In this document: piece after piece, positions 277 through 25,431 of the stretch
Layout of the letters: each line of letters begins with the position of its first letter
Position numbering within the stretch: the stretch's first letter is position 1
IMG/VR virus record: IMGVR_UViG_3300025389_000108
Coordinates: 1 to 25,431 of that record
DNA: 25,431 nt
Source: a virus
Lineage: Duplodnaviria; Caudoviricetes
Reading direction: 5' to 3' (one strand)
Notes under the pieces: model-generated
The model's input: the letters and a program-made list of their open reading frames with translations, nothing else
Told to the model about the DNA's origin: nothing
Database searches by the model: none
Translations under genes and position numbers: made by a program

Positions 277-1752
277 TTAGTACTTGATAATCTTGGTAAC
301 CACGGCATATGGTTGCATGTTATTGTGACCAGAAGCTGTTGTAGCGGTGTTTCCGCTGGTTGTAAGCCCCGTTTGGGCAGGCACTGTAAAACCAAGACCA
401 GGAATGGCTACACTACCTGTAACTGCTTGTGAGGCAATAGAAAGAGATGGAATAGAAAGAGATGGAATGGAAAGTCCTGGAATGGAAAGTCCTGGAATGG
501 AAGCAGAATTAACAGTGAGTGAAGGGATGCTAACACTAACTCCAGATAGACTGTGGGAGTGACCAGAATCACTGGCACTGACAGTAATACTTGGTGTTTG
601 AGAGTCAGTAGATTCTGAACTAATACGTGCTGACTTAACACCACCAGTTACTGTACCTGTACCAATATTATAAGAACCGGTAAGATTGCTCGATACTTCC
701 CAAAAAGGACCAGCTGTAGGAGTTATACTGTGGCTGTGAGAACTTTGGGAAGCACTTGCACCAATATTAGCATTACCGGTTGCAGTATTCCCAGAACTAA
801 TACTAGCACTACCTGCTGAAGTTGTGGTTGTACCAGTGTTTCCTGTACCGGTAGTACCCGTACCAGTGGTACCTCCACCTGTAGCACCGGTACCAGTAGA
901 ACCGCCAGATGTATTTAAACTTACGCTAGAACTTGTACCTGTGTTGGTTGTTCCTGTAGAACTTGGTACTGTAAACGTGTGGGTGTGAGTTGCTAAAGGT
1001 GTTTCTGCAGTAACAAGAGTGTGGTTTTCTTCACCACTAACTGCTGCTAAAGTTCTATTTGTAAGACCAGTTCCAGAACCTGCGCCGATAGATACTCTTC
1101 CTCGCATATCCGGTACATTAAAATTAGTGCCTGATCCACCCCATGCATAGCCAATTGCGGCAAATAGGGCAGCATAAGTAGTAGTAGAATAGTTAGAACC
1201 GTCGCAAAGCAAATATCCACTTGGAGCTGTTGCTCCAGCATAATCAAGCATTACTCCTGGAGGAGTTGAAACGCTAACAGGGTGTGGTTGAAATGATGCT
1301 TCAATTGGGCTTGTAGCAGTTAATACATAACCAGTTGTAGTTTGACCACCACTTATAGCAATGTTGCCAATGCTTAATGATCCATTAATTAATATTCCAC
1401 TAGCAACTGTTACATTGTTAAGACTGCTAGTCGCTGGTGCTGGCAGTGAGGCAGTGCTATTAATTTGACGAGTATTAGGATCAAACAAACCGGCATATAG
1501 ATATAGTCTATAAAGAGTAGTACGTTTTTCTACCCACCAGACTTGGTACTGTTGAATTTGATCAAGAACTACACCAGCTGGCAATGCTTGTAGGTCAATT
1601 TGATATTGAAAACCATTTTGATCAAAACCAAGACAATAGTAATTTTGGGAAGCACCAGCTGTATTGCTAAGGGGATTAATTTGTGGATTAGACGTTAGGG
1701 TAACTTTGCGTACACCAGATTTAGTATCATACTTTTGACCTGTTACACTCAT
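277..1752 (-). CDS. Central spike/tail fibre protein with a tail-collar domain and HxH needle
   Basis: 491 aa. Collar motifs PPGVMLDYAGATAPSGYLLCDGS, FNVPDMRGRV, GEENHTL and C-terminal HNNMQPYAVVTKIIKY. HxH motifs THTHT, SHSHS and GHSHS. Lies between the hub and gp25-like genes. Confidence 0.85.
   Translation of the reverse strand: MSVTGQKYDTKSGVRKVTLTSNPQINPLSNTAGASQNYYCLGFDQNGFQYQIDLQALPAGVVLDQIQQYQVWWVEKRTTLYRLYLYAGLFDPNTRQINSTASLPAPATSSLNNVTVASGILINGSLSIGNIAISGGQTTTGYVLTATSPIEASFQPHPVSVSTPPGVMLDYAGATAPSGYLLCDGSNYSTTTYAALFAAIGYAWGGSGTNFNVPDMRGRVSIGAGSGTGLTNRTLAAVSGEENHTLVTAETPLATHTHTFTVPSSTGTTNTGTSSSVSLNTSGGSTGTGATGGGTTGTGTTGTGNTGTTTTSAGSASISSGNTATGNANIGASASQSSHSHSITPTAGPFWEVSSNLTGSYNIGTGTVTGGVKSARISSESTDSQTPSITVSASDSGHSHSLSGVSVSIPSLTVNSASIPGLSIPGLSIPSLSIPSLSIASQAVTGSVAIPGLGFTVPAQTGLTTSGNTATTASGHNNMQPYAVVTKIIKY
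436..502. repeat. 15-bp coding tandem repeat (SIPGL/SIPSL units)
   Basis: aatagaaagagatgg x2 (436-465), aatggaaagtcctgg x2 (466-495), then a partial copy. Confidence 0.9.
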
Positions 1753-4466
1753 TGTACAAACTCCAGTCCGTAATGCATAACTGTTCCATTTTTCATTGGA
1801 GCAGTCATCGTTGCCTGAGTAGTAAACCCACCACTTCGGTCACCATTGTGTGTTACTGATACACAATAGAATTGGTATTGATCTTGACCGCCGCTTTCAT
1901 TGTCAAGGTTAAGAACAACTCTCATACCAGGGTATAGTTCTGGCATAAAAGTAAGCGTTACGTTGCTTGTAAATTGGTTTGCCCATTGTTGCATAAAAGT
2001 TTGTAGACCAAAGAAATATTCAAGAGCGTGGCTGTGGATAACATTTACTTCTTGTGGAAATGGTCGAATGCCATATCTTTGTAAGAAATTGAGAGCAATT
2101 TGAGCATTTTGTTGGTCAGTTGCAGTATTACCTACTTGTTGACCAAATAAAAGTTGCATAGTGGTAACATCTTGAATACTAACAACACCATTGGTACTCA
2201 TGTAGTCAACAATGTTAATAGATTGACCAATACCTGAAGTATCACCAATAACTGCTACGTGAGTAACTAATGCATCATCACTGTGGTAAATTTGGAAGTC
2301 AATAATTTCAATATCACATATCTCCATTACAGGATCCATACCATAAATTCCATACCAATCAGGAAACCAAGCTACAAAATCTCCGTTGGGAGCACTCATA
2401 TATGTTCTTAATCCAGCTTGCACTACTTGATGCAAATCTTGCATTAATGGATTATCCAATATAAACGCTCTTGGAGTACCTTGGATTGTAGAAGCAACAA
2501 TGTTGTAATTAGGTGATATCCATTGAGTATTCCATCCTTGAATATCAGTAACTAATGTAGAAGTTTCTGTAGTTGAATAATTAGCATTGGCAGATGTGCT
2601 TGGTACTGTTACAGATTGTCTAAAGTATTGACCCCAACCTGGGTGTAGAGTTAATGGTCTACGAGCACCCATATATGACATTCCCCAACCAGGAGGGCTT
2701 CCGCCATTTTTAATTTGTGACCAATAAACAGGACTTTCTCCTACAGGTTTGCCATAGGTAGATGATTGAATCATTGTTGCTTTGTCGTTTATAAATGGAG
2801 TTTCAAGGTAAGTTACGTGACCTGGTTGTTTAGAACCATCGCTAGGAACATCCCAAAACAACAAATCACCTGGGATTGGCATTTGATTAGGTGGAATCCA
2901 TAGACCACATTTATTATTATCAGAGTTGCTACCAGTACCAAATTGCGAATAAGTGTTTCCACCAATTGTAATACCAATTTGTCGGTAACCCCATTGTACT
3001 AAACCAGAACAGTCAAAATAACCACCGCTATTTTTACCTGGAGTGTTTGGTGTTTCACGGTAATGAGCTCCACTAGTATCTTGACTATATTGAGCACCAA
3101 ATTGTTGGCGTAGGTAATAATTTAATGCTTCAACAGCACTTGTAAGAACCTGAGAAGTAACATTGTTTTGTGAATTGATACCAAGATATGATTGAGTATT
3201 GGTTATGGTAGATTGTTGAATTACTTGTTGAGGGCCTGGTGATGATACTTGAGATTGATCAGCCCATGATATTTCAATATATGCATAATCAACAGCAACT
3301 TTATTGCTCCATTGAGTTGGGTCACCAATGGCGGCATTTAGATAAGCAACAACTCCAGGGTGACATTGCACAGCGTTAGAATTAGGTTCTGCTACAGTGG
3401 AACCATTTTGATAAACAAGGTTGCCATCTTTATCGACTTTTTGAGTTACAGTTGTTGCTCTAAGTGCTACAACTCTATTGGTTTTAGTATTTGTGAGAAG
3501 CAACATTCTTCCGTTATACTTATCTGTTGAATTATAAGCATTTTCAGAAATCCAACTTTTAGCATTATTGATAATATTTGGATCAGGATTAGTTATATAA
3601 GAAAATGGAACACTGCAATAATAAATATTTTCATCGGTTTTATTAAGACTTACTGGATTCATTGAACTTGGTCCAGGAAAATATTGTTTATTTTTACCAT
3701 TTATAGCTGCAGTTTTTAAAGCTATAGCTCTTGATACAGAAAAATTAGTTCCCACGCCACCATCTGGTGCAGCAGTATCTTTTACAGTTTGTTGTTTACC
3801 ATAAACATATTTATTGTTAGAATTACTTTGACCGCTAGTAATATTATTAACACCAACAATAGTTGCAATAGTTTGTACTGTAGTTTGATTGATTGTGCTA
3901 TTATAATTATCTTGGTTTTTAGCAATAGTACCAGCTAAATCAAGAAATTTTTGAGGAACTGGTGCAACATGAATTCTACTAGGATCCCAACCGGCTACCT
4001 TAGTTAATAAATTAACAACAACTTGCGAGATACCACCATCATTTAAAGTTGCATTGCTGCTAGCTGCAGAACTATCCATGTAGTTAAGTAGCAATGATTG
4101 GTATTCCAACAAAGTGTCATCCCAGTATGTTTGCTGGAGGTTTCTTAATGTGCACGATGCTTGGATTTGAATGGGTGTAGGAACCAATGTTTCAATAGGT
4201 GCTAACGTTACATAACCTGTAAAAACTTGTACATAATTAGTTCTTTTAAGGAACACGGTAATTTTGTCCATAGTATTAATTACACGGTTATATTTGCGTC
4301 TTGGGTTTGCAAGCGTAGCGTTAAAAGTACTAACTGCATTTAAATTGCGAGTAACTTGAAAATTCATTATATCATTAGATACGTCAAGAACACCGTTTTT
4401 TAACGTGCTAATAGTGCAGCTAATATCTGGTGTATAAGTAAAAGTACCTGCGTTATTAAGACCCAT
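1749..4466 (-). CDS. Baseplate hub/tail-associated lysin with an NlpC/P60 peptidase domain
   Basis: 905 aa. Hub-like N-terminus (DVSNDI...VTRNLNAVSTF.ATL.NP...VFTGYV) and C-terminus (LTFMPELYPGMRV...FYCVSVTH...GFTTQATM). Internal NlpC/P60 motifs FDCSGLVQWGY, PGDLLF, GHV and YMGARRP. Confidence 0.85.
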   Translation of the reverse strand: MGLNNAGTFTYTPDISCTISTLKNGVLDVSNDIMNFQVTRNLNAVSTFNATLANPRRKYNRVINTMDKITVFLKRTNYVQVFTGYVTLAPIETLVPTPIQIQASCTLRNLQQTYWDDTLLEYQSLLLNYMDSSAASSNATLNDGGISQVVVNLLTKVAGWDPSRIHVAPVPQKFLDLAGTIAKNQDNYNSTINQTTVQTIATIVGVNNITSGQSNSNNKYVYGKQQTVKDTAAPDGGVGTNFSVSRAIALKTAAINGKNKQYFPGPSSMNPVSLNKTDENIYYCSVPFSYITNPDPNIINNAKSWISENAYNSTDKYNGRMLLLTNTKTNRVVALRATTVTQKVDKDGNLVYQNGSTVAEPNSNAVQCHPGVVAYLNAAIGDPTQWSNKVAVDYAYIEISWADQSQVSSPGPQQVIQQSTITNTQSYLGINSQNNVTSQVLTSAVEALNYYLRQQFGAQYSQDTSGAHYRETPNTPGKNSGGYFDCSGLVQWGYRQIGITIGGNTYSQFGTGSNSDNNKCGLWIPPNQMPIPGDLLFWDVPSDGSKQPGHVTYLETPFINDKATMIQSSTYGKPVGESPVYWSQIKNGGSPPGWGMSYMGARRPLTLHPGWGQYFRQSVTVPSTSANANYSTTETSTLVTDIQGWNTQWISPNYNIVASTIQGTPRAFILDNPLMQDLHQVVQAGLRTYMSAPNGDFVAWFPDWYGIYGMDPVMEICDIEIIDFQIYHSDDALVTHVAVIGDTSGIGQSINIVDYMSTNGVVSIQDVTTMQLLFGQQVGNTATDQQNAQIALNFLQRYGIRPFPQEVNVIHSHALEYFFGLQTFMQQWANQFTSNVTLTFMPELYPGMRVVLNLDNESGGQDQYQFYCVSVTHNGDRSGGFTTQATMTAPMKNGTVMHYGLEFVQ

Positions 4467-15891: not shown

Positions 15892-16383
15892 CTACTTTGC
15901 AGGTGGTGTGTGAATTGATTGAGCATTAATTGCAGAAGTATTAAAGCGTAGGTAGGTCTGTGGCAAACGACCATCCTGATTGACGTGAACGTAACTAGGG
16001 TCGCCCTGCTGACCGTGTGAGATGGTTAGAGGGTTCTTTGCGTTAGCGCCGGTAACGTCAACGATGAGTGCTGTGTGCCAGCCGGTTCCTGGGCCATAAA
16101 CGATTACGTCTCCTGGAAGAACATCTTTGAGGGCAATCTTGCGACCATGTGCAAGCAATGTGCCGGTGTAACCGGTGTGGTTGTAGCTTTGAGCATTTGG
16201 ATCAGGTGCACCAGCCCAGTTGTAGCAGAGGGTGACAAAGGCTGAGCAGTCAGCAGTTACTGGCATTTTTCCTGGGTGTCCAATACCAGACATACGGTTT
16301 GGACCTTCTGAATAGGTGAAATTGGCGTGATTAGTGGCGCACCACTTAGCCCAAGCAACAATATTATCTCTTACGTCGGTCAT
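15892..16383 (-). CDS. NlpC/P60 cysteine peptidase, probable endolysin
   Basis: 163 aa with catalytic Cys (ADCSAFV), GYTGT, and His (PGDVIVYGPGTGWHTAL). AAAGGA RBS. Confidence 0.8.
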   Translation of the reverse strand: MTDVRDNIVAWAKWCATNHANFTYSEGPNRMSGIGHPGKMPVTADCSAFVTLCYNWAGAPDPNAQSYNHTGYTGTLLAHGRKIALKDVLPGDVIVYGPGTGWHTALIVDVTGANAKNPLTISHGQQGDPSYVHVNQDGRLPQTYLRFNTSAINAQSIHTPPAK

Positions 16384-16419: not shown

Positions 16420-18153
16420 TTAGCTGGGTACTACATCTTCCCCAGAGTTATAAAGGGGCTCAGAATAAGGTGCTGTTTGGTTATTTTCTTCAGTTCGTAA
16501 AGCACCTGGTTCATTAGTAGGTTCAGCGTAATCAGCAACTTGGTCATTTTCGGTTGCGTGGTCACCAGCAACATCTACATTGTGCGGTGTAACATAGAAA
16601 TTGACTTCGTTGACTGGCTCTACCTTGGCAGATTCTATAGATCTTACATTTATAACCATACTAATTCCATAACGAACTAAGCTAACAGCTGTAGCAATAG
16701 CTCTTCTAAAATAAGTAATGCTCTTTTTAGTACCAATTTCATAACTAACTGTTGCCGTAGCATATTTTTTGCGATTGTTTGCTTTTGTTACAGTTGCTGA
16801 TACGGATTGCAATACAATGGCAGATTTTTTGTTATTCTTACCACCAGCTCCGTAGCCAATAAATATGGTTATATTTTTGGCAATCTTACGGTATGCATGG
16901 GATTTAATATTGGTGCTAAGGTTGGTGACTAGAGCTTTAACAAAAGTTGAACGTCGTTTATTGACTCTAGCAAGATTTGTTCTATTAGCATTAGCTTTTC
17001 TAGTAAATTTAGATAGTTTGGTGGTTTGGGCAAGATTAACAACTCTAGCAACTGCGTAACGGTAAAATTGATCAATCTTTGAATCAGATACTATGCTAAT
17101 GGCAGTTGCTTTAGCAACTCTAATAAATCTAGATAATTTGCTGGTGACAGTAATATTAATAATTGTTGCTGTTGCTCGTCTTGTAAACTTAGCAGTTTTT
17201 GTAGTTTTAGCTAGTTCTGCCAATATAACTTTAATGTTTTTTCCATAGTTTTTGCTGATCTTGCTCAGCATTACTTGGTTAGCTTTTGCCAATCGTTTAG
17301 CTACTACAAATCTTGTAGCTATAGCAACGTTTAATTGGTTGGCTTTGGCTGCTCTAATAAATTTAGATTTTTTGGTGGTAGTGATTAAATGAGTTATTCT
17401 TGCGGTACCATACCTATGAAAAGCACTGATCTTACCATCAAATGCAATATTAGTAGTCAGCGCTTTAGCAGCTCGTTTGAATCTGCTTAATTGCTTATAA
17501 TTTGCTATATTAATAAATACTGGCTTAATTAAAGCAACACGAGTTTTATTGGATTTAATAAGTAAAACCCTGGTAGCAAAAGCAAAACGAATTCTGTCAA
17601 ATCGTTGTTTACTTGCTACAACACCAACATAGTTAACTATTGCAGTTTTGATCTTTGAACGGATATATCTAGAAACAATTGCTGAGGTTTGCAAAGCAAT
17701 AGCAAATTTGACATGCAAGAAACCATTAGTAGCTCTTGTTAAATTTACAGTTGTAGAAACTGCTTGTTTTGGTCTATTGACACCAGATTTATTGTTAACA
17801 AATATAGTAGCTAAAGCAATAGCGTTCTTAAAGTAATCAATGTGTTGTTGGAACCCATATCCACCTCTCCAACCAAGCTCATAAGCTTCGATGTTGGGTG
17901 AATAATATGCTCTAGTAAAACTACTTTTAGGTCCTGTGTAAGGCGGTGGAATAACCGGACCTTCGCCGCCTCTCCAACCTTCTGGGACTTTATTGTTTTT
18001 GTTTGTGGCAAAATAACCAAATAAGATGGTTTTCTTTTTACTACTATAATCTGGGTGCGGCCCACCCTCACCACCGGTATACCCTTCAATAACTTGATTA
18101 TTGGTTGAACGGTAACCTCTAGAAAGGTTCTTTTTTGGTTTTTTATAGGCCAT
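16420..18153 (-). CDS. Very basic repeat-containing protein of unknown function
   Basis: 577 aa with about eleven 18-20-aa Lys/Arg-rich repeats, three GxxGGxG motifs in the N-terminus and an acidic C-terminal tail. Confidence 0.7.
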   Translation of the reverse strand: MAYKKPKKNLSRGYRSTNNQVIEGYTGGEGGPHPDYSSKKKTILFGYFATNKNNKVPEGWRGGEGPVIPPPYTGPKSSFTRAYYSPNIEAYELGWRGGYGFQQHIDYFKNAIALATIFVNNKSGVNRPKQAVSTTVNLTRATNGFLHVKFAIALQTSAIVSRYIRSKIKTAIVNYVGVVASKQRFDRIRFAFATRVLLIKSNKTRVALIKPVFINIANYKQLSRFKRAAKALTTNIAFDGKISAFHRYGTARITHLITTTKKSKFIRAAKANQLNVAIATRFVVAKRLAKANQVMLSKISKNYGKNIKVILAELAKTTKTAKFTRRATATIINITVTSKLSRFIRVAKATAISIVSDSKIDQFYRYAVARVVNLAQTTKLSKFTRKANANRTNLARVNKRRSTFVKALVTNLSTNIKSHAYRKIAKNITIFIGYGAGGKNNKKSAIVLQSVSATVTKANNRKKYATATVSYEIGTKKSITYFRRAIATAVSLVRYGISMVINVRSIESAKVEPVNEVNFYVTPHNVDVAGDHATENDQVADYAEPTNEPGALRTEENNQTAPYSEPLYNSGEDVVPS

Positions 18154-18258: not shown

Positions 18259-18678
18259 CTACAAACCGTATTTACTAATGATATAATCCACTTCTTGTTC
18301 AACGGTTAAACCATCTTTAATGATAGAATCAACGTAATTTATTGGGTCTTGCCAAAGGTTGTTGGTGTCCTCAAAACGGCCTTTTTTGATACGATCCATC
18401 CAAATAAGAATATCTGGTTTACCAAAGGCTTTTCTTGTTTCTTCTGTAGGGCAGACAAAATCCACAATTATATTGTGGCCTTGACGTTCTAGCAACCTTG
18501 CCATTTCTCCAAGCCTACGGGCTTGTTCAATTCTGTCATTGTTTGAAAAACCAAGATCTGAATTGACCGTTGCCCTAACTTCATCAGCATTTAAATGAAT
18601 TACAGGTATTTTTTCTTTTAAACCATTTGCTAGAGCAGTTTTACCCGATCCAGGAAGACCGATAATTTGAATAATCAT
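18259..18678 (-). CDS. cysC: Adenylylsulfate (APS) kinase-like P-loop protein
   Basis: 139 aa. P-loop GLPGSGKT, then HLNADEVR...DLGFS..DR.E..RR.GE.ARLL..QG, matching the CysC pattern LDGD.VR...DLGFS..DR.EN.RR. Shorter than cellular CysC. Confidence 0.75.
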   Translation of the reverse strand: MIIQIIGLPGSGKTALANGLKEKIPVIHLNADEVRATVNSDLGFSNNDRIEQARRLGEMARLLERQGHNIIVDFVCPTEETRKAFGKPDILIWMDRIKKGRFEDTNNLWQDPINYVDSIIKDGLTVEQEVDYIISKYGL

Positions 18679-19259
18679 TAGTGGTAAAACTTTGTTATTG
18701 TCCAGCGTTCTCCACTGATGACCGGTTCTACTTGATGTGCATAAGGGAAATGTGCAGGGAAAAGAATTAATTGGTTTTTCTTAGGCTTAATTTTTAAACC
18801 AAATTCAACAAAATTAATTTCTCCACCATCAAAATTATCATTTAAATAATGCAACAAAGAGAACGTTCTTTTATCAAACATAGCACCACGACCCCAGTCA
18901 ATATGTGCTCTGTAATGATGTCCTTTTTCATATTTTAAAATATGATATGCATCAGATCCAATGGTATCTGTATGGTACTTTTCACAATAATTATCTACGC
19001 ATGTTTTATAAACATTGTCAAGCATTTTTCTTAAATCATTTAATATAACATTGTTAGTGTCATCATTAGATATGCCGATAAGCTTTACGCTTCTAACCTT
19101 TGGCATTATTTCATTGTCTCCAACTGGAGCCAAAGTCCAATGCAAAGAACCATTTCTAATATGTTGTTCCCATTCAGGAATCATATTAGAAATATTTTCT
19201 CCTACATTATCGTAACTTATAATACCTGGTGCTAATATTTCTCTTTTTATTTCATACAT
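18678..19259 (-). CDS. 2OG-Fe(II) oxygenase, prolyl-4-hydroxylase-like
   Basis: ILKYEKGHHYRAHID (HxD), YLNDNFDGGEINF, FPAHFPYAHQVEPVISGERWTI (distal His and 2OG-binding Arg). Start placed at the ATG at 19259 because of the AAAGGT RBS and no overlap with the previous gene. Confidence 0.9.
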   Translation of the reverse strand: MYEIKREILAPGIISYDNVGENISNMIPEWEQHIRNGSLHWTLAPVGDNEIMPKVRSVKLIGISNDDTNNVILNDLRKMLDNVYKTCVDNYCEKYHTDTIGSDAYHILKYEKGHHYRAHIDWGRGAMFDKRTFSLLHYLNDNFDGGEINFVEFGLKIKPKKNQLILFPAHFPYAHQVEPVISGERWTITKFYH

Positions 19260-19269
19260 AATGTACCTT

Positions 19270-19965
19270 TTATTTTTTAATTGCGACCATAAACTCAAGA
19301 GGTGATTCAAATGTTTCGCTCCATACTGAGTCGTCAAGCAATGGTTCTACATATTTAAACATTCTCATTGGAGTAGCTGTTAATAAAATTCCACCTTTTT
19401 TTAAGAGTATGGATGATGCAGTTATAATTTCTTTTATAACTTCTAATCCGTCTTCACCACCGCACAGTGCTGTTAAATCATAAGGAAGAATATCTAATTG
19501 TGAAAGATCGTCTGGTATAGGTATACATGGGTAAGATGCAAAAATAAAATCAACTTGACCATGAAGTTTATCAAGGTGGTTGATCGAATCAAGAGCGCTA
19601 CACATTACTGGAATAAATTTAGAATTATTTTTATTCATTTGTTCTTTAAAAGTGTTGGCATTCTTTACAGTCCAAGAAAATGGTTCTTCATATTTTTCCA
19701 CACCATAAATTGTTGAATTTGGTGCTTCTATTGCCATTGCTATGCCAAGCATACCTGTTCCAGTGCACATGTCTACCATAACAAGGTTATCTGATAAATC
19801 AATTTTTTCTTTTATGTAAAACAAAATATCGTCAAGGAATTTATCCATGCCATAATTCTCTACAAAAACGCCTTTACCGACAGCTATTTTTAATCCACGA
19901 AGTTCGTAAAAACCTTCATCATATGCTTTTGTATTTATAATAAATTTAAATTGTTCTCTAGTCAT
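19270..19965 (-). CDS. SAM-dependent methyltransferase, HemK/PrmC-like
   Basis: 231 aa with VGKGVF, VDMCTGTG, ALCGGEDGLEV and LLKKGG. The NPPY position reads SYPC. Confidence 0.8.
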   Translation of the reverse strand: MTREQFKFIINTKAYDEGFYELRGLKIAVGKGVFVENYGMDKFLDDILFYIKEKIDLSDNLVMVDMCTGTGMLGIAMAIEAPNSTIYGVEKYEEPFSWTVKNANTFKEQMNKNNSKFIPVMCSALDSINHLDKLHGQVDFIFASYPCIPIPDDLSQLDILPYDLTALCGGEDGLEVIKEIITASSILLKKGGILLTATPMRMFKYVEPLLDDSVWSETFESPLEFMVAIKK

Positions 19966-19975
19966 GTTTTATTTC

Positions 19976-20545
19976 CTATTTTGATTCTATAGCCCATATA
20001 GGCATTATGTCCACAACTAAATTAATCCTTGAAGTTGTTCCGTTATTATCAACTGCATGGCGTTTAACATTATTTATTTCCCAAATCTCTCCTGTTTTCA
20101 TATTTATGGTTTCGCCATCAACCCATGATTCACATTGAGGATTAGTTATTATTGGTATTTGGTGCCTATGCACAGCACTAAAATATTGACCCATATCCAT
20201 ATGAATATAAATATTGGTTCCAGCTGGTAATAAGAAATAAAATATTTTGGCTGCTTTGCCATTGCAATCTTTTTCTAATTTATCAATTATTGGTTTAGTT
20301 AATGCCCAAAGTTCTTTATCGTCACATTTAAATTCTGGTGTAAAGGGTGCTGGATAGAACCAATTCCTTGGGTAATCTTGGATTATCAAAGCTTTACCAT
20401 GTTTATGATGAGTTAAATTTAATTGTTGATTAAAGCATTCATCCTTTCCTAGTAAAAAGGTAGATAATTCATTAACATTTACTTCACCCTTTTTAATAAA
20501 ATTGAATGGATTGTTGTATTTACTCCATACTTTAGTTAATGTCAT
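19976..20545 (-). CDS. Aspartyl/asparaginyl(proline) beta-hydroxylase family 2OG-Fe(II) oxygenase
   Basis: 189 aa with LPAGTNIYIHMD, HRHQIPIITNP and GEIWEINNVKRHAVDNNGTTSRINLVVD, a full match to the family pattern. Confidence 0.85.
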   Translation of the reverse strand: MTLTKVWSKYNNPFNFIKKGEVNVNELSTFLLGKDECFNQQLNLTHHKHGKALIIQDYPRNWFYPAPFTPEFKCDDKELWALTKPIIDKLEKDCNGKAAKIFYFLLPAGTNIYIHMDMGQYFSAVHRHQIPIITNPQCESWVDGETINMKTGEIWEINNVKRHAVDNNGTTSRINLVVDIMPIWAIESK

Positions 20546-21262
20546 TTAAGGCTCATAACCAAAAGTTTCAAATTCCCACCACCATTCTTTCTGTATGGCT
20601 TCGAGATCTTGCTTATTAAATATGTCTTTGTATGTAATGTGTTGTGGTTTATAATCGCTTTTTGCTTTATAAGGTATTGTAATCTCTGGCAACCCAACCA
20701 TTGGTAAAATTTTATTTATTTCGTTCTCTATTCCATTTTCATATCGTAAAACATGATCAACTAATATTTTACCATCTGGTGCATATAACCATTTTGTACT
20801 ATAGAGCGTGCAAAATTCTAGTTCTCCTGCATAAAAAAAACGATATTTTAAATAATCTTTTTGTTTTGCGGATAATGCATCCCAGTTATAACCGCCACCA
20901 TATTCAAATGGGTTAGCGTTATTATTGGTTTTTACTCCCCAATATTCTCTCATTTTATGAAAAAACCATGAAGCTATTATTTCATATGGGTGTCTTACAA
21001 AAATAGCAGAGATTGTATTGTTTATAGTTTCTTTACTAAACACTTCGCATACTTCTTGATAAGAGGCATGATTCTTTAGTGTAATATCACCATGAATATA
21101 GTTTCTTGGTGAATGACCATAATCTGATTCATTAATGGGTTGTAAAGGTGTGCAAGTTGAGTTCTCTGGGATAAGATTATACAATGATAATTCCAATGAA
21201 CTTCCGCCAACTTTATAATTTTTTAGTAATAAAAAGTTATTATCGGGAGAATAAATCATCAT
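20546..21262 (-). CDS. Sulfotransferase family protein (Sulfotransfer_2-like)
   Basis: 238 aa with 5'-PAPS-binding-like KNYKVGGSS, 3'-phosphate-binding-like FVRHPYE...SWF, VDHVLRYEN and C-terminal EFETFGY. Confidence 0.75.
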   Translation of the reverse strand: MMIYSPDNNFLLLKNYKVGGSSLELSLYNLIPENSTCTPLQPINESDYGHSPRNYIHGDITLKNHASYQEVCEVFSKETINNTISAIFVRHPYEIIASWFFHKMREYWGVKTNNNANPFEYGGGYNWDALSAKQKDYLKYRFFYAGELEFCTLYSTKWLYAPDGKILVDHVLRYENGIENEINKILPMVGLPEITIPYKAKSDYKPQHITYKDIFNKQDLEAIQKEWWWEFETFGYEP

Positions 21263-21531
21263 TCACCCTTGTTTATTTTTTCCAATTCAAGATTAGCTAA
21301 TGCAATAGCACTCTTTATGTCTGTGGCAATGCCGACCACTTTTAGTTTACCTGGGTTAGTGCCTCTAGAAACAACGTAGAACTTATAGTTCTTATCTTTT
21401 TCTATGAACAACCTTGTTGCAGTATATGAGTCTAAAAAACGAAGATAACGTGTTCGGTTATCATTGTTTTTAGGAAGTACCATTGTCTTCCAACGACGTT
21501 TTTCATTATATATTTTGTTTTTCTTAAACAT
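21259..21531 (-). CDS. Hypothetical basic protein (90 aa)
   Basis: Coupled on both sides (TAATG upstream, ATGA downstream). No recognisable motif. Confidence 0.65.
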   Translation of the reverse strand: MFKKNKIYNEKRRWKTMVLPKNNDNRTRYLRFLDSYTATRLFIEKDKNYKFYVVSRGTNPGKLKVVGIATDIKSAIALANLELEKINKGE

Positions 21532-22241
21532 TAGCTTTCTACCTTATAAATTTTCTTACGCCATATATTTTTTCTATACCAACCAACTTGATAATTATAG
21601 TCTCTTTCGGGATGGTTTTCCATGCTTCTTTTCCATACACCTTTCTTCTTTTTAGCAACCCAATCTTCTCTTTTGAATGGGATAACTTGTAATATAGGAG
21701 TACCTGCAGGGATAATACCTTCAAAGCCCTTCTTAATGCTAAATGGTATATTACCACCATGCATAAAGAATTCACCATCTACAATGCCTGCAAAAGACAT
21801 GAATGGTAAATCAAACCTATTAAAAGGGTGTGTTACTATAGCACTATATCCTTCGGGAAGATGAAAAGCATATTGAGTATGCCAAATAAAATGCTCTTCA
21901 TCATATCCAGCTGCTGATGGCATTGGATCTGTAGATATTGGGTCTCTATTATTGATTGGCATAGGCATTTGTTTACAACGAATAGATGGCCCATGTTCTG
22001 TTTGCTCTACATATAGTTCTTGAGGTAAAGACATGTAAAATCCAGTTGTTAGAGCATCTAAAAATGGTATACACATCTTAAGACCCATGCCAGGCATGCC
22101 ATTCTTTGGGTCTTTATTTTCTAACATTTTTGGTGCTTTTTTGTACCAATCGGGCACAATTTCAACCATTGCTCCCATGCCCTTTTTTTCTACGTATGGA
22201 GAACCCTCATAATAAAGTATATTTTTATTATTTTTAAACAT
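21531..22241 (-). CDS. Conserved phage protein, paralogue 2 (DUF6065-like, possible dUTPase-like beta fold)
   Basis: 236 aa with PDWYKK, KMCIPFLDALTTG, PEGYS..VTHPFNRFDLPF, GIVD and GTPILQVIPFKREDW. Confidence 0.7.
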   Translation of the reverse strand: MFKNNKNILYYEGSPYVEKKGMGAMVEIVPDWYKKAPKMLENKDPKNGMPGMGLKMCIPFLDALTTGFYMSLPQELYVEQTEHGPSIRCKQMPMPINNRDPISTDPMPSAAGYDEEHFIWHTQYAFHLPEGYSAIVTHPFNRFDLPFMSFAGIVDGEFFMHGGNIPFSIKKGFEGIIPAGTPILQVIPFKREDWVAKKKKGVWKRSMENHPERDYNYQVGWYRKNIWRKKIYKVES

Positions 22242-22375
22242 TATTTATACATTTTCCTATGCCATCTAAATTTTTTATACCATTCAGGTACAACTTTTAA
22301 CATCGGTTGTAATTCGTCAGAATAATGAACTTTTGATTCATACCCTAAAACTCTTGGTTCTTTTTCTTTAAACAT
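22241..22375 (-). pseudogene. Internally deleted third paralogue (44-aa mini-ORF)
   Basis: Not in the ORF track. MFKEKEPRVLGYESKVHYSDELQPMLKVVPEWYKKFRWHRKMYK joins the family N-terminus to its C-terminus. TAATG-coupled at both ends. Confidence 0.75.
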
Positions 22376-23055
22376 TATTTATAAATCTTTTTCTTCCAAA
22401 AATTCTTTCGATAATGCCCATTTAACAATTCAGAGACAGGTGCTTTTATAGTAGTATCAGCTTCATTCCAAAGACCTTTTGTAGATTTAGCGGCCCATTC
22501 TTCTCTTTTAAATGGTATCACTTGCACTATAGGAGTACCTGCAGGAATTTCACCTTCAAAACCTTTTTTAATAAAGAATGACATATTAGCACCGGGCATT
22601 GCATAATCATCTACCACTGCACTACTTGTTAAAAATGGCAATTCCCAACGGTTCAATGGGTGTGTGTAAAGCAACGAATAACCATCAGGAGGTCTTACTA
22701 CGATGTTAGCAAACCAAAGAAAATGTTCTTCTTCATATCCTTGTGGTACTGGAGCTGGGTCAGTTACTACACTTGGCCTATTATTAACAACGGGTTCTCT
22801 TGGACTATTGTAACGTATAACAACTCCGTTTTCTGTTCTTTGAACATAGACATTTTCTTCAAGAACTATGGTATAACCAAGTGTAAGACTCTCAAGAAAT
22901 GGAATGCAATGTTTAACTCCAGGCCATTCTTGACCACGTTCGTCAGTTACCCATCTTTTTGTTTTTTTATACCAATCAGGTATAACAGAAAGCATTGGTC
23001 TCATATGATCTATAAAGCCATTATGGCTTTCGTATTTTATGATTTGACGCGACAT
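22375..23055 (-). CDS. Conserved phage protein, paralogue 1 (DUF6065-like, possible dUTPase-like beta fold)
   Basis: 226 aa with PDWYKK, KHCIPFLESLTLG, PDGYSLLYTHPLNRWELPF and GTPIVQVIPFKREEW. Clearly homologous to 21531..22241. Confidence 0.7.
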   Translation of the reverse strand: MSRQIIKYESHNGFIDHMRPMLSVIPDWYKKTKRWVTDERGQEWPGVKHCIPFLESLTLGYTIVLEENVYVQRTENGVVIRYNSPREPVVNNRPSVVTDPAPVPQGYEEEHFLWFANIVVRPPDGYSLLYTHPLNRWELPFLTSSAVVDDYAMPGANMSFFIKKGFEGEIPAGTPIVQVIPFKREEWAAKSTKGLWNEADTTIKAPVSELLNGHYRKNFWKKKIYK

Positions 23056-23384
23056 TACTCTTCGTCTTTCGAATCTTCCTCAACAACTTGTGGTTCTTCT
23101 TCAATAGCTTGCCATTTACCTATTGGACAAAATGCATTAGGTAATTTTACTTTTGCAGGCATAAAACAACCACATTCTTTGCATATCATGGATGATTTAC
23201 GGATGCGTGGACAATCCTTGCAGATGGCAAGGCGTTCACTAGCTAACTCTTCTTCTACTCTACCAATTTTTTTATTGAATAAATCCCATGGTCTAGCTGG
23301 ACGTTGTTCAAATGTTTCTTCGGGAGTATTCTTTAGGTTTTCTAAATATAATTCCCAAGGCGTTTGCTTTGGTTGGCCGTTCAT
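23055..23384 (-). CDS. Small Cys-rich metal-binding protein (DUF6171-like)
   Basis: RLAICKDCP...CKECGCFM..K......CPIGKW, six Cys. Confidence 0.7.
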   Translation of the reverse strand: MNGQPKQTPWELYLENLKNTPEETFEQRPARPWDLFNKKIGRVEEELASERLAICKDCPRIRKSSMICKECGCFMPAKVKLPNAFCPIGKWQAIEEEPQVVEEDSKDEE

Positions 23385-23386
23385 TT

Positions 23387-23620
23387 TTAACGGTATTCAC
23401 TCGCAAATTCACCGGTTTCTTCATCGTAACCAAGACCGACTTGGATGAAAGCACCTTGTGGGTGATCTGTAATATCAATTACTATTGGATTGCTTGTAAA
23501 GATTGCTGCGTTTCTAGCACTACAACTTTGAGCATGAACTACTTTACCATCAAGAACGAATGCTAAACGGTTAGTTGTATTGATAGCAATCATTGGATCT
23601 TCTGGGATTGGAATTGCCAT
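23387..23620 (-). CDS. Small protein, paralogue B (possible fibre assembly/accessory protein)
   Basis: 77 aa, RLAFVLDGKV......SARNAAIFTSNPIVIDIT...VGLGYD..TGEF. Confidence 0.7.
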   Translation of the reverse strand: MAIPIPEDPMIAINTTNRLAFVLDGKVVHAQSCSARNAAIFTSNPIVIDITDHPQGAFIQVGLGYDEETGEFASEYR

Positions 23621-23621
23621 A

Positions 23622-23861
23622 TTATTTCCTATTCTCTTCTAGGCTTTCACCGTCAAAATCAGTGAAAGTATCGGTAGCTACATTATACTGAAAACCTACC
23701 GGTATGTCAAGTCCTGTTATGTTTCTTGCTATTGGTTTACTTAGCAATAGAGCTGCAAATCTTTCTGAGCATTCAATTACTTCTTGTACAAAACCATCAA
23801 GAATAAAAGCAATCCGATACATAGGAGGCGTATTATTTAGGTTCTCTTCTTTGTCTGTCAT
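23622..23861 (-). CDS. Small protein, paralogue A (possible fibre assembly/accessory protein)
   Basis: 79 aa, RIAFILDGFV......SERFAALLLSKPIARNIT...VGFQYN..TDTF. Confidence 0.7.
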   Translation of the reverse strand: MTDKEENLNNTPPMYRIAFILDGFVQEVIECSERFAALLLSKPIARNITGLDIPVGFQYNVATDTFTDFDGESLEENRK

Positions 23862-23877
23862 GATCTCTTTCTATTGT

Positions 23878-25053
23878 TTATATCGCTGAGAATGGTCCAA
23901 CAGTACTACCTTGGGTAGGAGCAGATGCGCCACTACCAGTTACCACTGGTGAATCAATTATACCAACACTAACATTACCAGTTGGAGCAGTCTGAGTGCT
24001 AGTCAAAGTACCTAGAGATGTTACCAATGCAGAATCACTAAAAGCAGTTGCTGTAATACTATTTCCTAGAGTAACAATCTGGATAGAGTTAATCTGAGCT
24101 GTTGTGCTATTTGAAGGTCCTTGTAGAACTCCTGTTGCAATTGTAGTAATTGTACCACCTACAGATTGTAGCAAGCTTAGCTGGTTATAGTACTGCGTTG
24201 AATAGTTTGCTGTATACCCGGCACAAGCACCATATGATGAACAAGAGTATGTTAAGCATCCCGTGGCATATCCTCCTGTACAAGACAACCCATAGCCTGT
24301 GCATGGTGGTGGAAAGTAAGGTGGGAAGAAAGGTGGAAAGAAAGGTGGGAAGAAAGGTGGAAAGAATGGTGGTGGTGGAAAGTAAGGTGGGAAGAAAGGT
24401 GGAAAGAAAGGTGGGAAGAAAGGTGGAAAGAATGGTGGTGGTGGAAAGTAAGGAGGAAAGAATGGTGGTGGTGGTGCGTAATATGGAGGAACACGACCTG
24501 CTTGTGGAAGAACAGGGAATTCTGGTCTATTTCTCTTTTTGCGTCTTGGTAACGTTGTAGTTGATCCATGAGCGTTAGGGTCACCATAAGGGCTGCTATA
24601 ACCGTAACTTGTGCAAACAGTAGAAAAACCCTGACACACTGGACCATATGATGCACATGTGTATCCTGTGCAAGGATACCCACCAGTACAAGTATAACTT
24701 GTTATGTTATTTTGTGAATAAGCATTATTAACAACTGCCCACCAGTTACCAGTGCTTGTCCACCAAAAAGCAATTCCAGTACCATTTGAAGCACTTTGCA
24801 ATTTTATTGTTGCATTAGCTTTATAAGGTATTGTAGCTAATGGGTAAGAACTAGCTGCTGTTGATGTGGTAGCTGATCCGCTTGTTGCATACCATACACC
24901 AGTTTGTGCAACCCAAAGTTGTCCACCTGGAACAGCTGTTCCTAGTGATCCTGATGTTGTTCTTGCAAATAGGTCACTAATTGGTGCTAAAGATCCTGAT
25001 AGGAGTCCATAAGCACGGGCTGCAAGGTCACTTAGTGCTGAGAATAATGGCAT
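23878..25053 (-). CDS. Virion-type beta-sandwich protein with an inserted Cys-ladder/polyproline loop
   Basis: 391 aa. The lectin-like beta domain (SDLFART..GSLGTA..GQLW...GVW) is split by a roughly 165-aa insert with 10 Cys, RRKKRNR and (PPFF)n. GGAG RBS. Confidence 0.75.
   Translation of the reverse strand: MPLFSALSDLAARAYGLLSGSLAPISDLFARTTSGSLGTAVPGGQLWVAQTGVWYATSGSATTSTAASSYPLATIPYKANATIKLQSASNGTGIAFWWTSTGNWWAVVNNAYSQNNITSYTCTGGYPCTGYTCASYGPVCQGFSTVCTSYGYSSPYGDPNAHGSTTTLPRRKKRNRPEFPVLPQAGRVPPYYAPPPPFFPPYFPPPPFFPPFFPPFFPPFFPPYFPPPPFFPPFFPPFFPPFFPPYFPPPCTGYGLSCTGGYATGCLTYSCSSYGACAGYTANYSTQYYNQLSLLQSVGGTITTIATGVLQGPSNSTTAQINSIQIVTLGNSITATAFSDSALVTSLGTLTSTQTAPTGNVSVGIIDSPVVTGSGASAPTQGSTVGPFSAI
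24304..24490. repeat. Hierarchical coding VNTR (12/24/66-bp units) encoding PPFF/PPYF
   Basis: Two exact 66-bp copies (24304-24369 and 24370-24435) plus a partial, diverged third copy. Each contains aggtgggaagaaaggtggaaagaa twice. Confidence 0.95.
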
Positions 25054-25078: not shown

Positions 25079-25431
25079 TTAGAACTTAGTCTGTCCGAGT
25101 AGCATAACATATGTATTAGCTGCTGTACATATTAATGTAATAGCATAGAAGTCATAGTTTACTGTTGCATCTGCAGCAGTCCATATTGAACCACCTTGAT
25201 AGTACGCTGTCACGGTGTAAGTGTTAGTATATGCTGTTCCGTGAGCAGGTAGCGTAGTACCACCGTTAACAGTGTAACCATTGATCGTAAACCCTGATGG
25301 GAGATAGGCTGTAGAACCATTATTTGTACCAACAGTGACAGTAACGGCTTGACCAACAGTAGTTGGAGCATTGGTTATTTGGATTTGCCATGCTGATGTT
25401 GGAGCAGCAGTGTAGACATAGACTCCACCAG
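25079..25431 (-). CDS. Tail fibre-like protein, C-terminal part (5' end outside the window)
   Basis: Not in the ORF track. Open frame ...GGVYVYTAAPTSAWQIQITNAP...YYQGGSIWTAADATVNYDFYAITLICTAANTYVMLLGQTKF* resembles a common phage fibre C-terminal domain. Confidence 0.7.
   Translation of the reverse strand, partial: GGVYVYTAAPTSAWQIQITNAPTTVGQAVTVTVGTNNGSTAYLPSGFTINGYTVNGGTTLPAHGTAYTNTYTVTAYYQGGSIWTAADATVNYDFYAITLICTAANTYVMLLGQTKF

Follow-up and report, generated by a model that had tools for sequence, protein, structure and literature searches.

The closest described counterparts of the genes considered here are predicted bacterial operons with genes for beta-hydroxylases, sulfotransferases and 3'-phosphoadenosine 5'-phosphosulfate (PAPS) synthetases, in which tail-collar or collagen-like proteins encoded alongside would be the substrates of the hydroxylases and sulfotransferases (Iyer, Abhiman, de Souza and Aravind 2010, PMC2938197). 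The same text ties the tandem dioxygenase arrays of cyanophages (for example, Syn9) to small-molecule chemistry. Among decorated virions, actinophages carry glycosylated capsid and tail-tube proteins (Freeman et al. 2023, as cited in PMC12619734), and tail methylation by MepM of the host affects host-cell binding (PMC13445384); cysC of freshwater phages, from the same Pfam family as the gene met below, has been read as an auxiliary metabolic gene (AMG) in PMC10914622. Here we analyze a 25,431-nucleotide stretch (the window, meaning this whole stretch) of IMG/VR virus record IMGVR_UViG_3300025389_000108 (Caudoviricetes; 25,431 bases, approximately 18% complete). A run of coupled genes in it, from position 25053 down to 18259, is headed by an appendage protein with a Pro/Phe/Tyr (PPFF/PPYF) loop and continues into a set of modification-type enzymes. 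Because one of these enzymes, a prolyl 4-hydroxylase (P4H)-type Fe/2-oxoglutarate (2OG) oxygenase, travels with the loop across related phages, it likely modifies the loop, as far as gene co-occurrence can tell.

A sequence-only reading of the window had proposed to check whether PPFF-loop genes co-occur with 2OG oxygenase, sulfotransferase and cysC genes across phages; the P4H does track the loops, far above two controls, but the adenosine 5'-phosphosulfate (APS) kinase, the sulfotransferase and the Asp/Asn beta-hydroxylase (AspH) do not. Sampling for the PPFF pattern gave 121 loci, 80 of them with flanks; 69 had a qualifying open reading frame (ORF), the 11 of 80 without a PPFF ORF being dropped, and 50 PPFF records for a whole-record Pfam search were drawn from those 69. 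The first control comprised 48 records anchored on the scaffold of the appendage protein (43 of 59 new loci, three others and two from the clade to which the window belongs; used without dereplication), and the second comprised 43 of 80 portal-anchored loci, those on contigs of at least 17 kb. Our local '2OG' profiles were made from PPFF loci, so that local tallies are biased toward PPFF; the whole-record Pfam counts do not share this bias.

Which genes travel together is directly observed in these counts. The P4H family, PF13640, was found in 40 of the 50 PPFF records and in 5 of the 48 scaffold records, three of the five being the only three with a PPFF pattern. Loop-less scaffold records with PF13640 number 2 of 45, both fragments shorter than 14 kb (p = 6e-15 against the PPFF records), and the family was absent from all six loop-less scaffold records that are at least 90% complete. 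In the portal set it occurred in 20 of 43 records, with at least five copies in eight; seven of these eight match the strict PPFF pattern and the array of the eighth follows a PPFF variant, that is, oxygenase arrays (at least five PF13640 genes) are present in 8/8 PPFF-type versus 0/35 other portal-matched records. The gene maps have fibre genes, then the PPFF gene, then 2OG oxygenase arrays with DUF6065. The nearest relatives of the window P4H outside its clade adjoin other Pro-rich appendages, either (PT)n or PPVYYN, and some of the PF13640 genes of non-PPFF portal records also adjoin (PT)n appendages.

The window P4H probably starts at the ATG at 19259, giving a protein of 193 amino acids in agreement with the orthologue in relative L001. 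Its double-stranded beta-helix ligands for iron and 2OG are intact, in the order HxD...H and basic 2OG ligand (H119-x-D121, H175 and R185). The best PDB match is the prolyl 4-hydroxylase of Bacillus anthracis (3itq, E = 5e-8, with the alignment limited to the C-terminal half), followed by 5c5t (E = 1e-3); PF13640 as a family also includes enzymes that act on substrates other than peptidyl proline. Close relatives carry one PF13640 copy (G014 and G097) or two (G098).

Repeat and enzymes also covary at one orthologous FN3 slot, for which 32 regions upstream of the portal were read: eight have PP-type cores, 16 have other cores and eight have no such core. All eight PP cores are accompanied by five to eight PF13640-type genes plus DUF6065, and none of the 16 other cores is accompanied by DUF6065 or by more than two PF13640-type genes. 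Next to 11 of these 16 lies an unannotated family of 220 amino acids (for example, L361:10933-11607, which has no Pfam match), with oxygenase-type His/Arg motifs recognized by eye from an alignment, and FGAF and YSFTP cores are accompanied by phrog_7084, either by itself or together with a sulfotransferase. In a portal tree built from 30 of the 32 records, the PP label undergoes seven changes versus a shuffled mean of 7.2, and therefore repeat and enzymes swap as a unit among close kin; sister pairs with good support carry different cores. Such swapping supplies repeated contrasts, but linkage alone could yield part of the pattern. The 220-residue family comes after FGVF/TPFG-type repeats, and the aromatic cores at this slot are exchangeable (FGVFGF, TPFGF, YSFTP, FGAF and GFSHYA in L361-L368 and L511-L524), many being followed by a Hint-like domain.

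In the window itself, gene order and coupling can be read off directly. As the sequence-only reading had it, the named ORFs form a tight run inside the structural operon, headed by the loop protein: the long ORFs are all on the minus strand, consecutive genes from 25053 down to 18259 are spaced by -4 to +16 nt, and the first wider gap, of 105 nt, follows the APS-kinase-like gene. The cassette lies between a tail-fibre gene and head/tail genes including the tail sheath, a position that supports its description as a tail-module cassette; tail assembly chaperones and other virion genes are also encoded in the window (Pfam/PHROG matches). An assembly artefact was ruled out, in that the region is covered by relatives and by contigs in 4/4 sequencing runs (30/30 bins are covered by contigs from the four runs examined); the runs in which it is best represented come from freshwater or lake metagenomes. 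The catalytic residues of the enzymes are intact, and relatives retain the genes at 76-93% identity. The features are as follows.

25079..25431, minus strand: tail-fibre protein, C-terminal end (phrog_5906); possible second substrate
23878..25053, minus strand: 391-aa appendage protein; its predicted fold is a ConA/CBM66-like beta-sandwich, into which a Cys-rich segment of variable make-up is inserted
24304..24489, minus strand: Pro/Phe/Tyr (PPFF/PPYF) loop of 62 residues, candidate P4H substrate
23622..23861, minus strand: 79-aa small protein of a family found after the scaffold gene, likely an assembly helper
23387..23620, minus strand: 77-aa protein, paralogue of the 79-aa protein
23055..23384, minus strand: DUF6171 protein with motifs CxxC, CxxCxC and C, likely a thiol or metal helper
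22375..23055, minus strand: first phrog_7084 protein (PHROG match), with remote kinship to DUF6065
22241..22375, minus strand: 44-aa remnant resembling both ends of a phrog_7084 gene
21531..22241, minus strand: second phrog_7084 protein, sharing 46% identity with its neighboring copy at 22375..23055
21259..21531, minus strand: 90-aa protein of no family, which accompanies the sulfotransferase/AspH/kinase set in L132 and L133
20546..21262, minus strand: sulfotransferase (Sulfotransfer_2, Pfam E = 1e-5)
19976..20545, minus strand: Asp/Asn beta-hydroxylase-family oxygenase, AspH (Asp_Arg_Hydrox, Pfam E = 2e-12)
19270..19965, minus strand: class I methyltransferase, HemK-like (weak Pfam matches; best PDB match HemK, E = 9e-4)
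18678..19259, minus strand: P4H-type Fe/2OG oxygenase (2OG-FeII_Oxy_3, PF13640, E = 2e-18)
18259..18678, minus strand: APS-kinase-like protein of 139 aa (APS_kinase, E = 9e-18, the match being confined to positions 4-91 of the 152-position profile)

Two descriptions in the earlier reading need adjusting. The accessory genes are present, but 'small' is wrong for the two phrog_7084 genes (226 and 236 aa). The enzymes do fall in the families assigned, but the kinase is an N-terminal half only, and the methyltransferase has SYPC (GYPC in L001) where HemK has the amide-binding motif NPPY.

The loop occupies residues 189-250 of the appendage protein (nt 24489-24304), just behind a basic stretch, and consists of 35 Pro, 21 Phe, 5 Tyr and 1 Ala. 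Ten Cys flank it, five per side and mirror-spaced (122/277, 128/271, 133/266, 140/258 and 147/251; pair sums 398-399), and its length and sequence differ in L001 and L008. A homology search with the appendage protein returned 76 homologues; in the 28 best-scoring other scaffold homologues among them (P0002-P0029) the N- and C-terminal parts are shared and the insert is Cys-rich, and the PPFF loop is missing. An AF2 model (39-row alignment) places residues of about 21-122 and 280-391 in one confident beta-sandwich of predicted ConA/CBM66-like fold, the top structural matches of which (VIA search) are CBM66 4b1m (Z 15.7, root mean square deviation [rmsd] 2.5, 146 aligned) and the receptor-binding domain of TM4 gp23 (Z 14.8, rmsd 2.8, 166 aligned). 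The appendage is thus predicted to resemble the receptor-binding heads of actinophages such as mycobacteriophage TM4. The repeat itself is mobile, being found on FN3, PASTA, Ig-like and other scaffolds, often C-terminal or ahead of Cys tails, Hint or Peptidase_S74 domains; by estimate, approximately 1,000 stored IMG/VR stretches fit the strict pattern. Literature searches, in which subscription journals were thinly covered, returned no paper on the PPFF repeat or on DUF6065.

The sulfotransferase, AspH and kinase behave as a set of their own. PAPS-type motifs are conserved in the sulfotransferase (K17 with GGS, and R90...S98, resembling the 5'-PSB and 3'-PB motifs, respectively), and AspH, a member of PF05118, has intact ligands (H115-x-D117, H163 and R173). 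Kinase residues 2-84, the N-terminal half with the P-loop and the APS-binding part, align with PF01583 and solved APS kinases (E = 4e-10), and no significant alignment extends past about residue 91, where the canonical C-terminal half with the lid region would lie; this part is divergent throughout the phage subfamily, so that kinase activity is only predicted. The usual phage form is a fusion of 252 amino acids, kinase followed by a CTP_transf-like nucleotidyltransferase, and the window protein stops at the fusion boundary. The nucleotidyltransferase family PF01467 was found in none of four related records, one of them complete, and the window protein lacks the second domain of a bifunctional PAPS synthase. 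Only 8 of 79 kinase loci encode fewer than 170 amino acids, and most kinase relatives (71/79 loci are not of the short form) lie away from tail genes, beside WhiB-like, halogenase-like and monooxygenase-like genes (named by eye). The 252-residue fusion is a candidate minimal PAPS synthase, often found beside AspH and a halogenase-like gene; the kinase patterns fit an estimated 1,100 or so stored viral stretches, of which L432-L503 were sampled.

The short kinase adjoins the scaffold in three lineages (the window clade, L132 and L133), which favors a structural role for the set, and sulfotransferase and AspH lie directly after several Pro/Phe-type FN3 core genes (L411, L413 and L424). With PPFF itself the association fails. 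The kinase was found in 9/59 PPFF records versus 7/80 others (Fisher p = 0.29), and all seven kinase loci of the 79 with PPFF belong to the window's clade. In dereplicated tallies of the 8 kb downstream (50 PPFF loci versus 29 loop-less scaffold loci), the sulfotransferase (6/50 versus 1/29) and AspH (3/50 versus 1/29) are rare beside PPFF genes, and the kinase is found at 1/50 versus 1/29. None of the three being enriched, we rejected them as PPFF-specific partners. The complete 43-kb phage G051 (L132) provides a natural counterpart: its scaffold is the same but carries a Tyr/Cys insert, and the small proteins, DUF6171, phrog_7084, sulfotransferase, AspH and short kinase are all present, and in this complete genome there is no loop, no P4H and no methyltransferase. 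Also rejected, as a hydroxyproline-linked partner of PPFF, was the PF11397 N-acetylglucosamine (GlcNAc) transferase, an attractive candidate for its likeness to Dictyostelium Gnt1; it is seen beside L059, L071, L086 and L353 and is commoner at loop-less scaffolds (6/29 versus 1/50).

The methyltransferase has the S-adenosylmethionine (SAM) motif DMCTGTG at residue 65, as in class I SAM-binding enzymes, and belongs to a tiny family (eight clusters at E <= 1e-10). It is dispensable: in contigs of three of the four runs, each from a different study, AspH is joined directly to the P4H and the methyltransferase skipped. Exact presence/absence segments among co-occurring strains coincide with the methyltransferase (19264-19972) and with the 44-aa remnant (22232-22367), the latter also being missing in L001. 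DUF6171 follows PPFF anchors with at least three Cys (16/20 versus 1/46) and is present at 26/29 loop-less Cys scaffold loci; by this distribution it travels with Cys-rich appendages and likely serves as a thiol or metal helper. The phrog_7084 proteins resembled dUTPases by eye, but neither Pfam at E <= 5 nor a PDB profile search returned a dUTPase match. Relatives of phrog_7084 are found in 49 halovirus records (for example, L010:7899-8783 of halovirus HF2), where the genes are solitary and run, on the other strand, head-to-head against the point at which the tail module ends.

A perfect TTGACA-17-TATAAT site lies at 23710-23682 on the minus strand, inside the 79-aa gene (reached in 8/300 shuffles), with 11/12 positions matching in L001 and L008. 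Sites matching at 10 of 12 positions precede the first gene after PPFF at 7/31 loci versus 37/500 other genes (p = 0.01), an enrichment that is weak (p = 0.35 at 11 of 12). The site suggests that the enzymes can be made separately from the fibre genes, which fits both the reading we favor and its host-directed rival (see below). Perfect sites of the same sigma-70 type also lie directly ahead of the first oxygenase in L242, L243 and L262.

By the distributions above, the cassette that the sequence-only reading treated as one system falls into at least three modules. The explanation that we prefer, with a probability of about one half, is a modular maturation cassette for a tail-fibre appendage, in which the P4H acts on the loop prolines and DUF6171 on the Cys stalk, with the sulfation set and the methyltransferase as separate add-ons. 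The phage, uncultured and contractile-tailed, is a lake phage that probably infects actinobacteria; WhiB is present in 4/4 related records, from which we infer an actinobacterial host. The 391-aa protein would be built into the fibre or the baseplate; five pairs of Cys in it, judged from spacing and fold, may form a stalk that holds the loop outward, with DUF6171 helping this stalk to form. Fe/2OG-dependent conversion of Pro to hydroxyproline would take place in the infected cell, before lysis, and might serve to tune adsorption or to protect the appendage. The targets of the sulfotransferase/AspH/APS-kinase set and of the methyltransferase are, on the co-occurrence data, probably not the PPFF loop; the set could act on hydroxyls of the stalk arms, on the Thr/Ser/Asn-rich fibre (the orthologue in L001 has 1997 amino acids and is Thr/Gly/Ser/Asn-rich) or on a host molecule, and would draw on host APS or PAPS because the phage nucleotidyltransferase half is missing.

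Several observations weigh against this explanation. PF13640 is not confined to PPFF phages: 12 of the 35 portal-matched non-PPFF records carry one to three such genes, some without any Pro-rich neighbor seen, and P4H relatives occur in 226 annotated phage records, mostly of cyanophages (Synechococcus phages), none of which matches the scaffold or DUF6065. Conversely, at 15/50 PPFF loci the 8 kb downstream contain no oxygenase of this family, and 10/50 PPFF records, mostly short fragments, have no PF13640. The G051 contrast is a single case on a different genome backbone, the stalk, the loop and the Cys pairing are not resolved by AF2 (block predicted local distance difference test score about 40-57), and the strong sigma-70-type site upstream of the enzymes permits their expression apart from the structural genes. 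Finally, neighboring genes exchanged as one block covary with or without one acting on the other.

This last point is the core of the alternative to which we give most attention, although we think it unlikely, namely that these are host-takeover or metabolic enzymes acting on host proteins, the envelope or small molecules, and lie near fibre genes as part of a hypervariable island exchanged in blocks. EF-Tu is a known target of bacterial P4Hs, single PF13640 genes exist without PPFF, most kinase relatives lie away from tail genes, and the promoter-like site precedes the enzymes; phage cysC has, moreover, been read as a sulfate-assimilation AMG (PMC10914622). Block linkage poorly explains, however, why the oxygenase family switches with the repeat chemistry, why DUF6171 follows Cys content and why loop and P4H are both missing from the otherwise similar L132 cassette, and it is also at odds with the finding of the same enzyme neighbors beside PPFF on unrelated scaffolds (FN3, PASTA, Ig-like and sandwich). 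The strong form of the sequence-only reading, in which the PPFF/PPYF loop is worked on by all five enzymes one after another and receives hydroxyproline, sulfate and methyl groups, has in its favor that all of the enzymes are coupled in one run, that the loop has five Tyr and would gain hydroxyls, that sulfotransferase and AspH can directly follow Pro/Phe-type FN3 genes, and that hydroxylation followed by sulfation of co-encoded proteins was predicted for the operons of Iyer et al. (PMC2938197). We nevertheless find such a single cascade improbable, and our results do not support it: kinase, sulfotransferase and AspH are unenriched with PPFF and are present in G051/L132, where loop and P4H are missing, AspH or a HemK-type enzyme would find no Asp, Asn or Gln in the loop to act on, the methyltransferase is a dispensable gene whose product has no NPPY motif, and the PAPS supply is incomplete.

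Two further alternatives concern the fate of the loop. It could be the core of a peptide in the manner of ribosomally synthesized and post-translationally modified peptides (RiPPs), modified, then excised and set free to serve as inhibitor, decoy or signal instead of being displayed. The repeat is C-terminal or precedes a self-cleaving Hint/Peptidase_S74 domain in many relatives, whose neighbors include AurF-like, carbamoyltransferase, radical SAM/SPASM and TauD enzymes, and a basic stretch lies ahead of the window loop; this loop is internal, between the Cys arms of a lectin-fold protein like phage receptor-binding heads, and no peptidase or exporter was recognized in the cassette among Pfam/PHROG matches, so that we hold release to be quite improbable. 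That the loop is simply an unmodified hydrophobic adhesin or spacer, with the cassette partly decaying cargo, would fit the truncated kinase, the 44-aa remnant, the dispensable methyltransferase and the PPFF proteins without an adjacent oxygenase, but sits so badly with intact catalytic residues, retained genes and strong covariation that we give it very little credence.

The modular maturation cassette may itself be one instance of something wider. A tentative extension, which we regard as possible but rather doubtful, is that freshwater actinophages use a combinatorial, RiPP-like peptide display, in which exchangeable low-complexity cores on fibre-tip scaffolds are swapped together with core-specific enzymes, giving virions chemically modified tips that would diversify host recognition. 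The cores would include PPFF, FGVF/TPFG, YSFTP, FGAF, (PT)n and Cys ladders, and the enzymes P4H arrays with DUF6065, the second oxygenase family, sulfotransferase/AspH, the GlcNAc transferase and DUF6171.

Other genes were noted around these loci. Tailoring-type genes near PPFF loci encode AurF-like, methyltransferase, TauD, radical SAM/SPASM, carbamoyltransferase and wax-ester acyltransferase proteins (L065:15680-20097, L082:6502-7947, L054:5351-6718 and L085:9279-9896), and glutathione peroxidase is found at 10/50 PPFF loci. At a second appendage locus (L353 and L357-L359), (PT)n repeats occur together with DUF6171, a single P4H and genes for glycosyltransferases or nucleotide sugars. In a non-fibre cluster (L350-L355 and L208-L217), long Pro/Glu-rich proteins are followed, a few genes further downstream, by two oxygenases and two phrog_7084 genes. 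In the window, a 577-aa ORF at 16420-18153 (minus strand), without a Pfam or PHROG family match, encodes a strongly basic, repetitive, Ala/Lys/Thr/Arg-rich protein with an acidic tail; its counterpart in L001 has 739 amino acids, and among scanned loci it is confined to the window's clade. The structural module also encodes a Tail-collar-domain protein (277-1752) and two NlpC/P60-type peptidase proteins (1749-4466 and 15892-16383), all on the minus strand.

Phage 2OG-Fe(II) oxygenases, sulfotransferases and cysC genes are plentiful in viromes from aquatic habitats, where they are mostly classed as AMGs with no known substrate. This locus is an unusually clean test case, with one P4H, one candidate loop and a natural counterpart that has neither. 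Should hydroxylation of the loop be borne out, a class of phage enzymes that has long gone without explanation would have a substrate, conclusions on sulfur and oxygen cycling drawn from AMGs would have to be revised, and the enzyme sets matched to repeats would offer new chemistry for modifying peptides; if combinatorial display also holds, a large number of phage genes for 2OG oxygenases and cysC that now count as 'metabolic' would serve to tailor the virion.

Among solved enzymes, the window P4H shares its HxD...H ligands with 3itq and 5c5t and differs from both in having Arg in place of the 2OG-binding Lys (GERW versus GEKW). The 5c5t structure is that of the prolyl 4-hydroxylase of Chlorella virus PBCV-1, an enzyme that hydroxylates Pro-rich repeats of its own virus. 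With regard to RiPP clusters, no leader peptidase or exporter was recognized in the cassette, and Hint and S74 domains occur on relatives. The cassette does contain together the trio of beta-hydroxylase, sulfotransferase and PAPS-pathway gene, and, as in the operons of Iyer et al. (PMC2938197), these are accompanied by a methyltransferase and a co-encoded non-enzymatic structural protein as the proposed substrate, in line with a hydroxylate-then-sulfate logic. Unlike the operons described in that text, the window genes are phage-borne and lie inside a tail module, and in place of a protein of tail-collar or Gly-X-Y type they offer a Pro/Phe loop, held on a putative Cys stalk, as candidate substrate. 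A PhyH-methyltransferase fusion is missing, the PAPS synthase is represented by one half, and it is the P4H, not the sulfation set, that tracks the loop. No tail-collar or collagen-like substrate was found in the cassette (the collar-domain protein at 277-1752 is 16 kb off), and relative L132 carries a collagen-like fibre. The cyanophage arrays are likewise clustered, phage-encoded 2OG oxygenases, and relatives of the window P4H are mostly in Synechococcus phages, but the window has one P4H, and no annotated phage record matches its scaffold or DUF6065. Actinophage virion glycosylation and MepM methylation are also post-translational decorations of virion proteins, differing in chemistry and targets, in that MepM is host-encoded and in that the accessible accounts describe no repeat-matched enzyme sets (PMC12619734 and PMC13445384). 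Compared with the cysC genes of PMC10914622, that of the window is truncated, belongs to a tail cassette in which it is coupled with a sulfotransferase gene, and is more simply read as supplying a sulfate donor than as serving assimilation. What the present analysis adds is a minimal case, with a single enzyme and a negative counterpart found in nature, together with the covariation of repeat and enzymes at one swappable locus.

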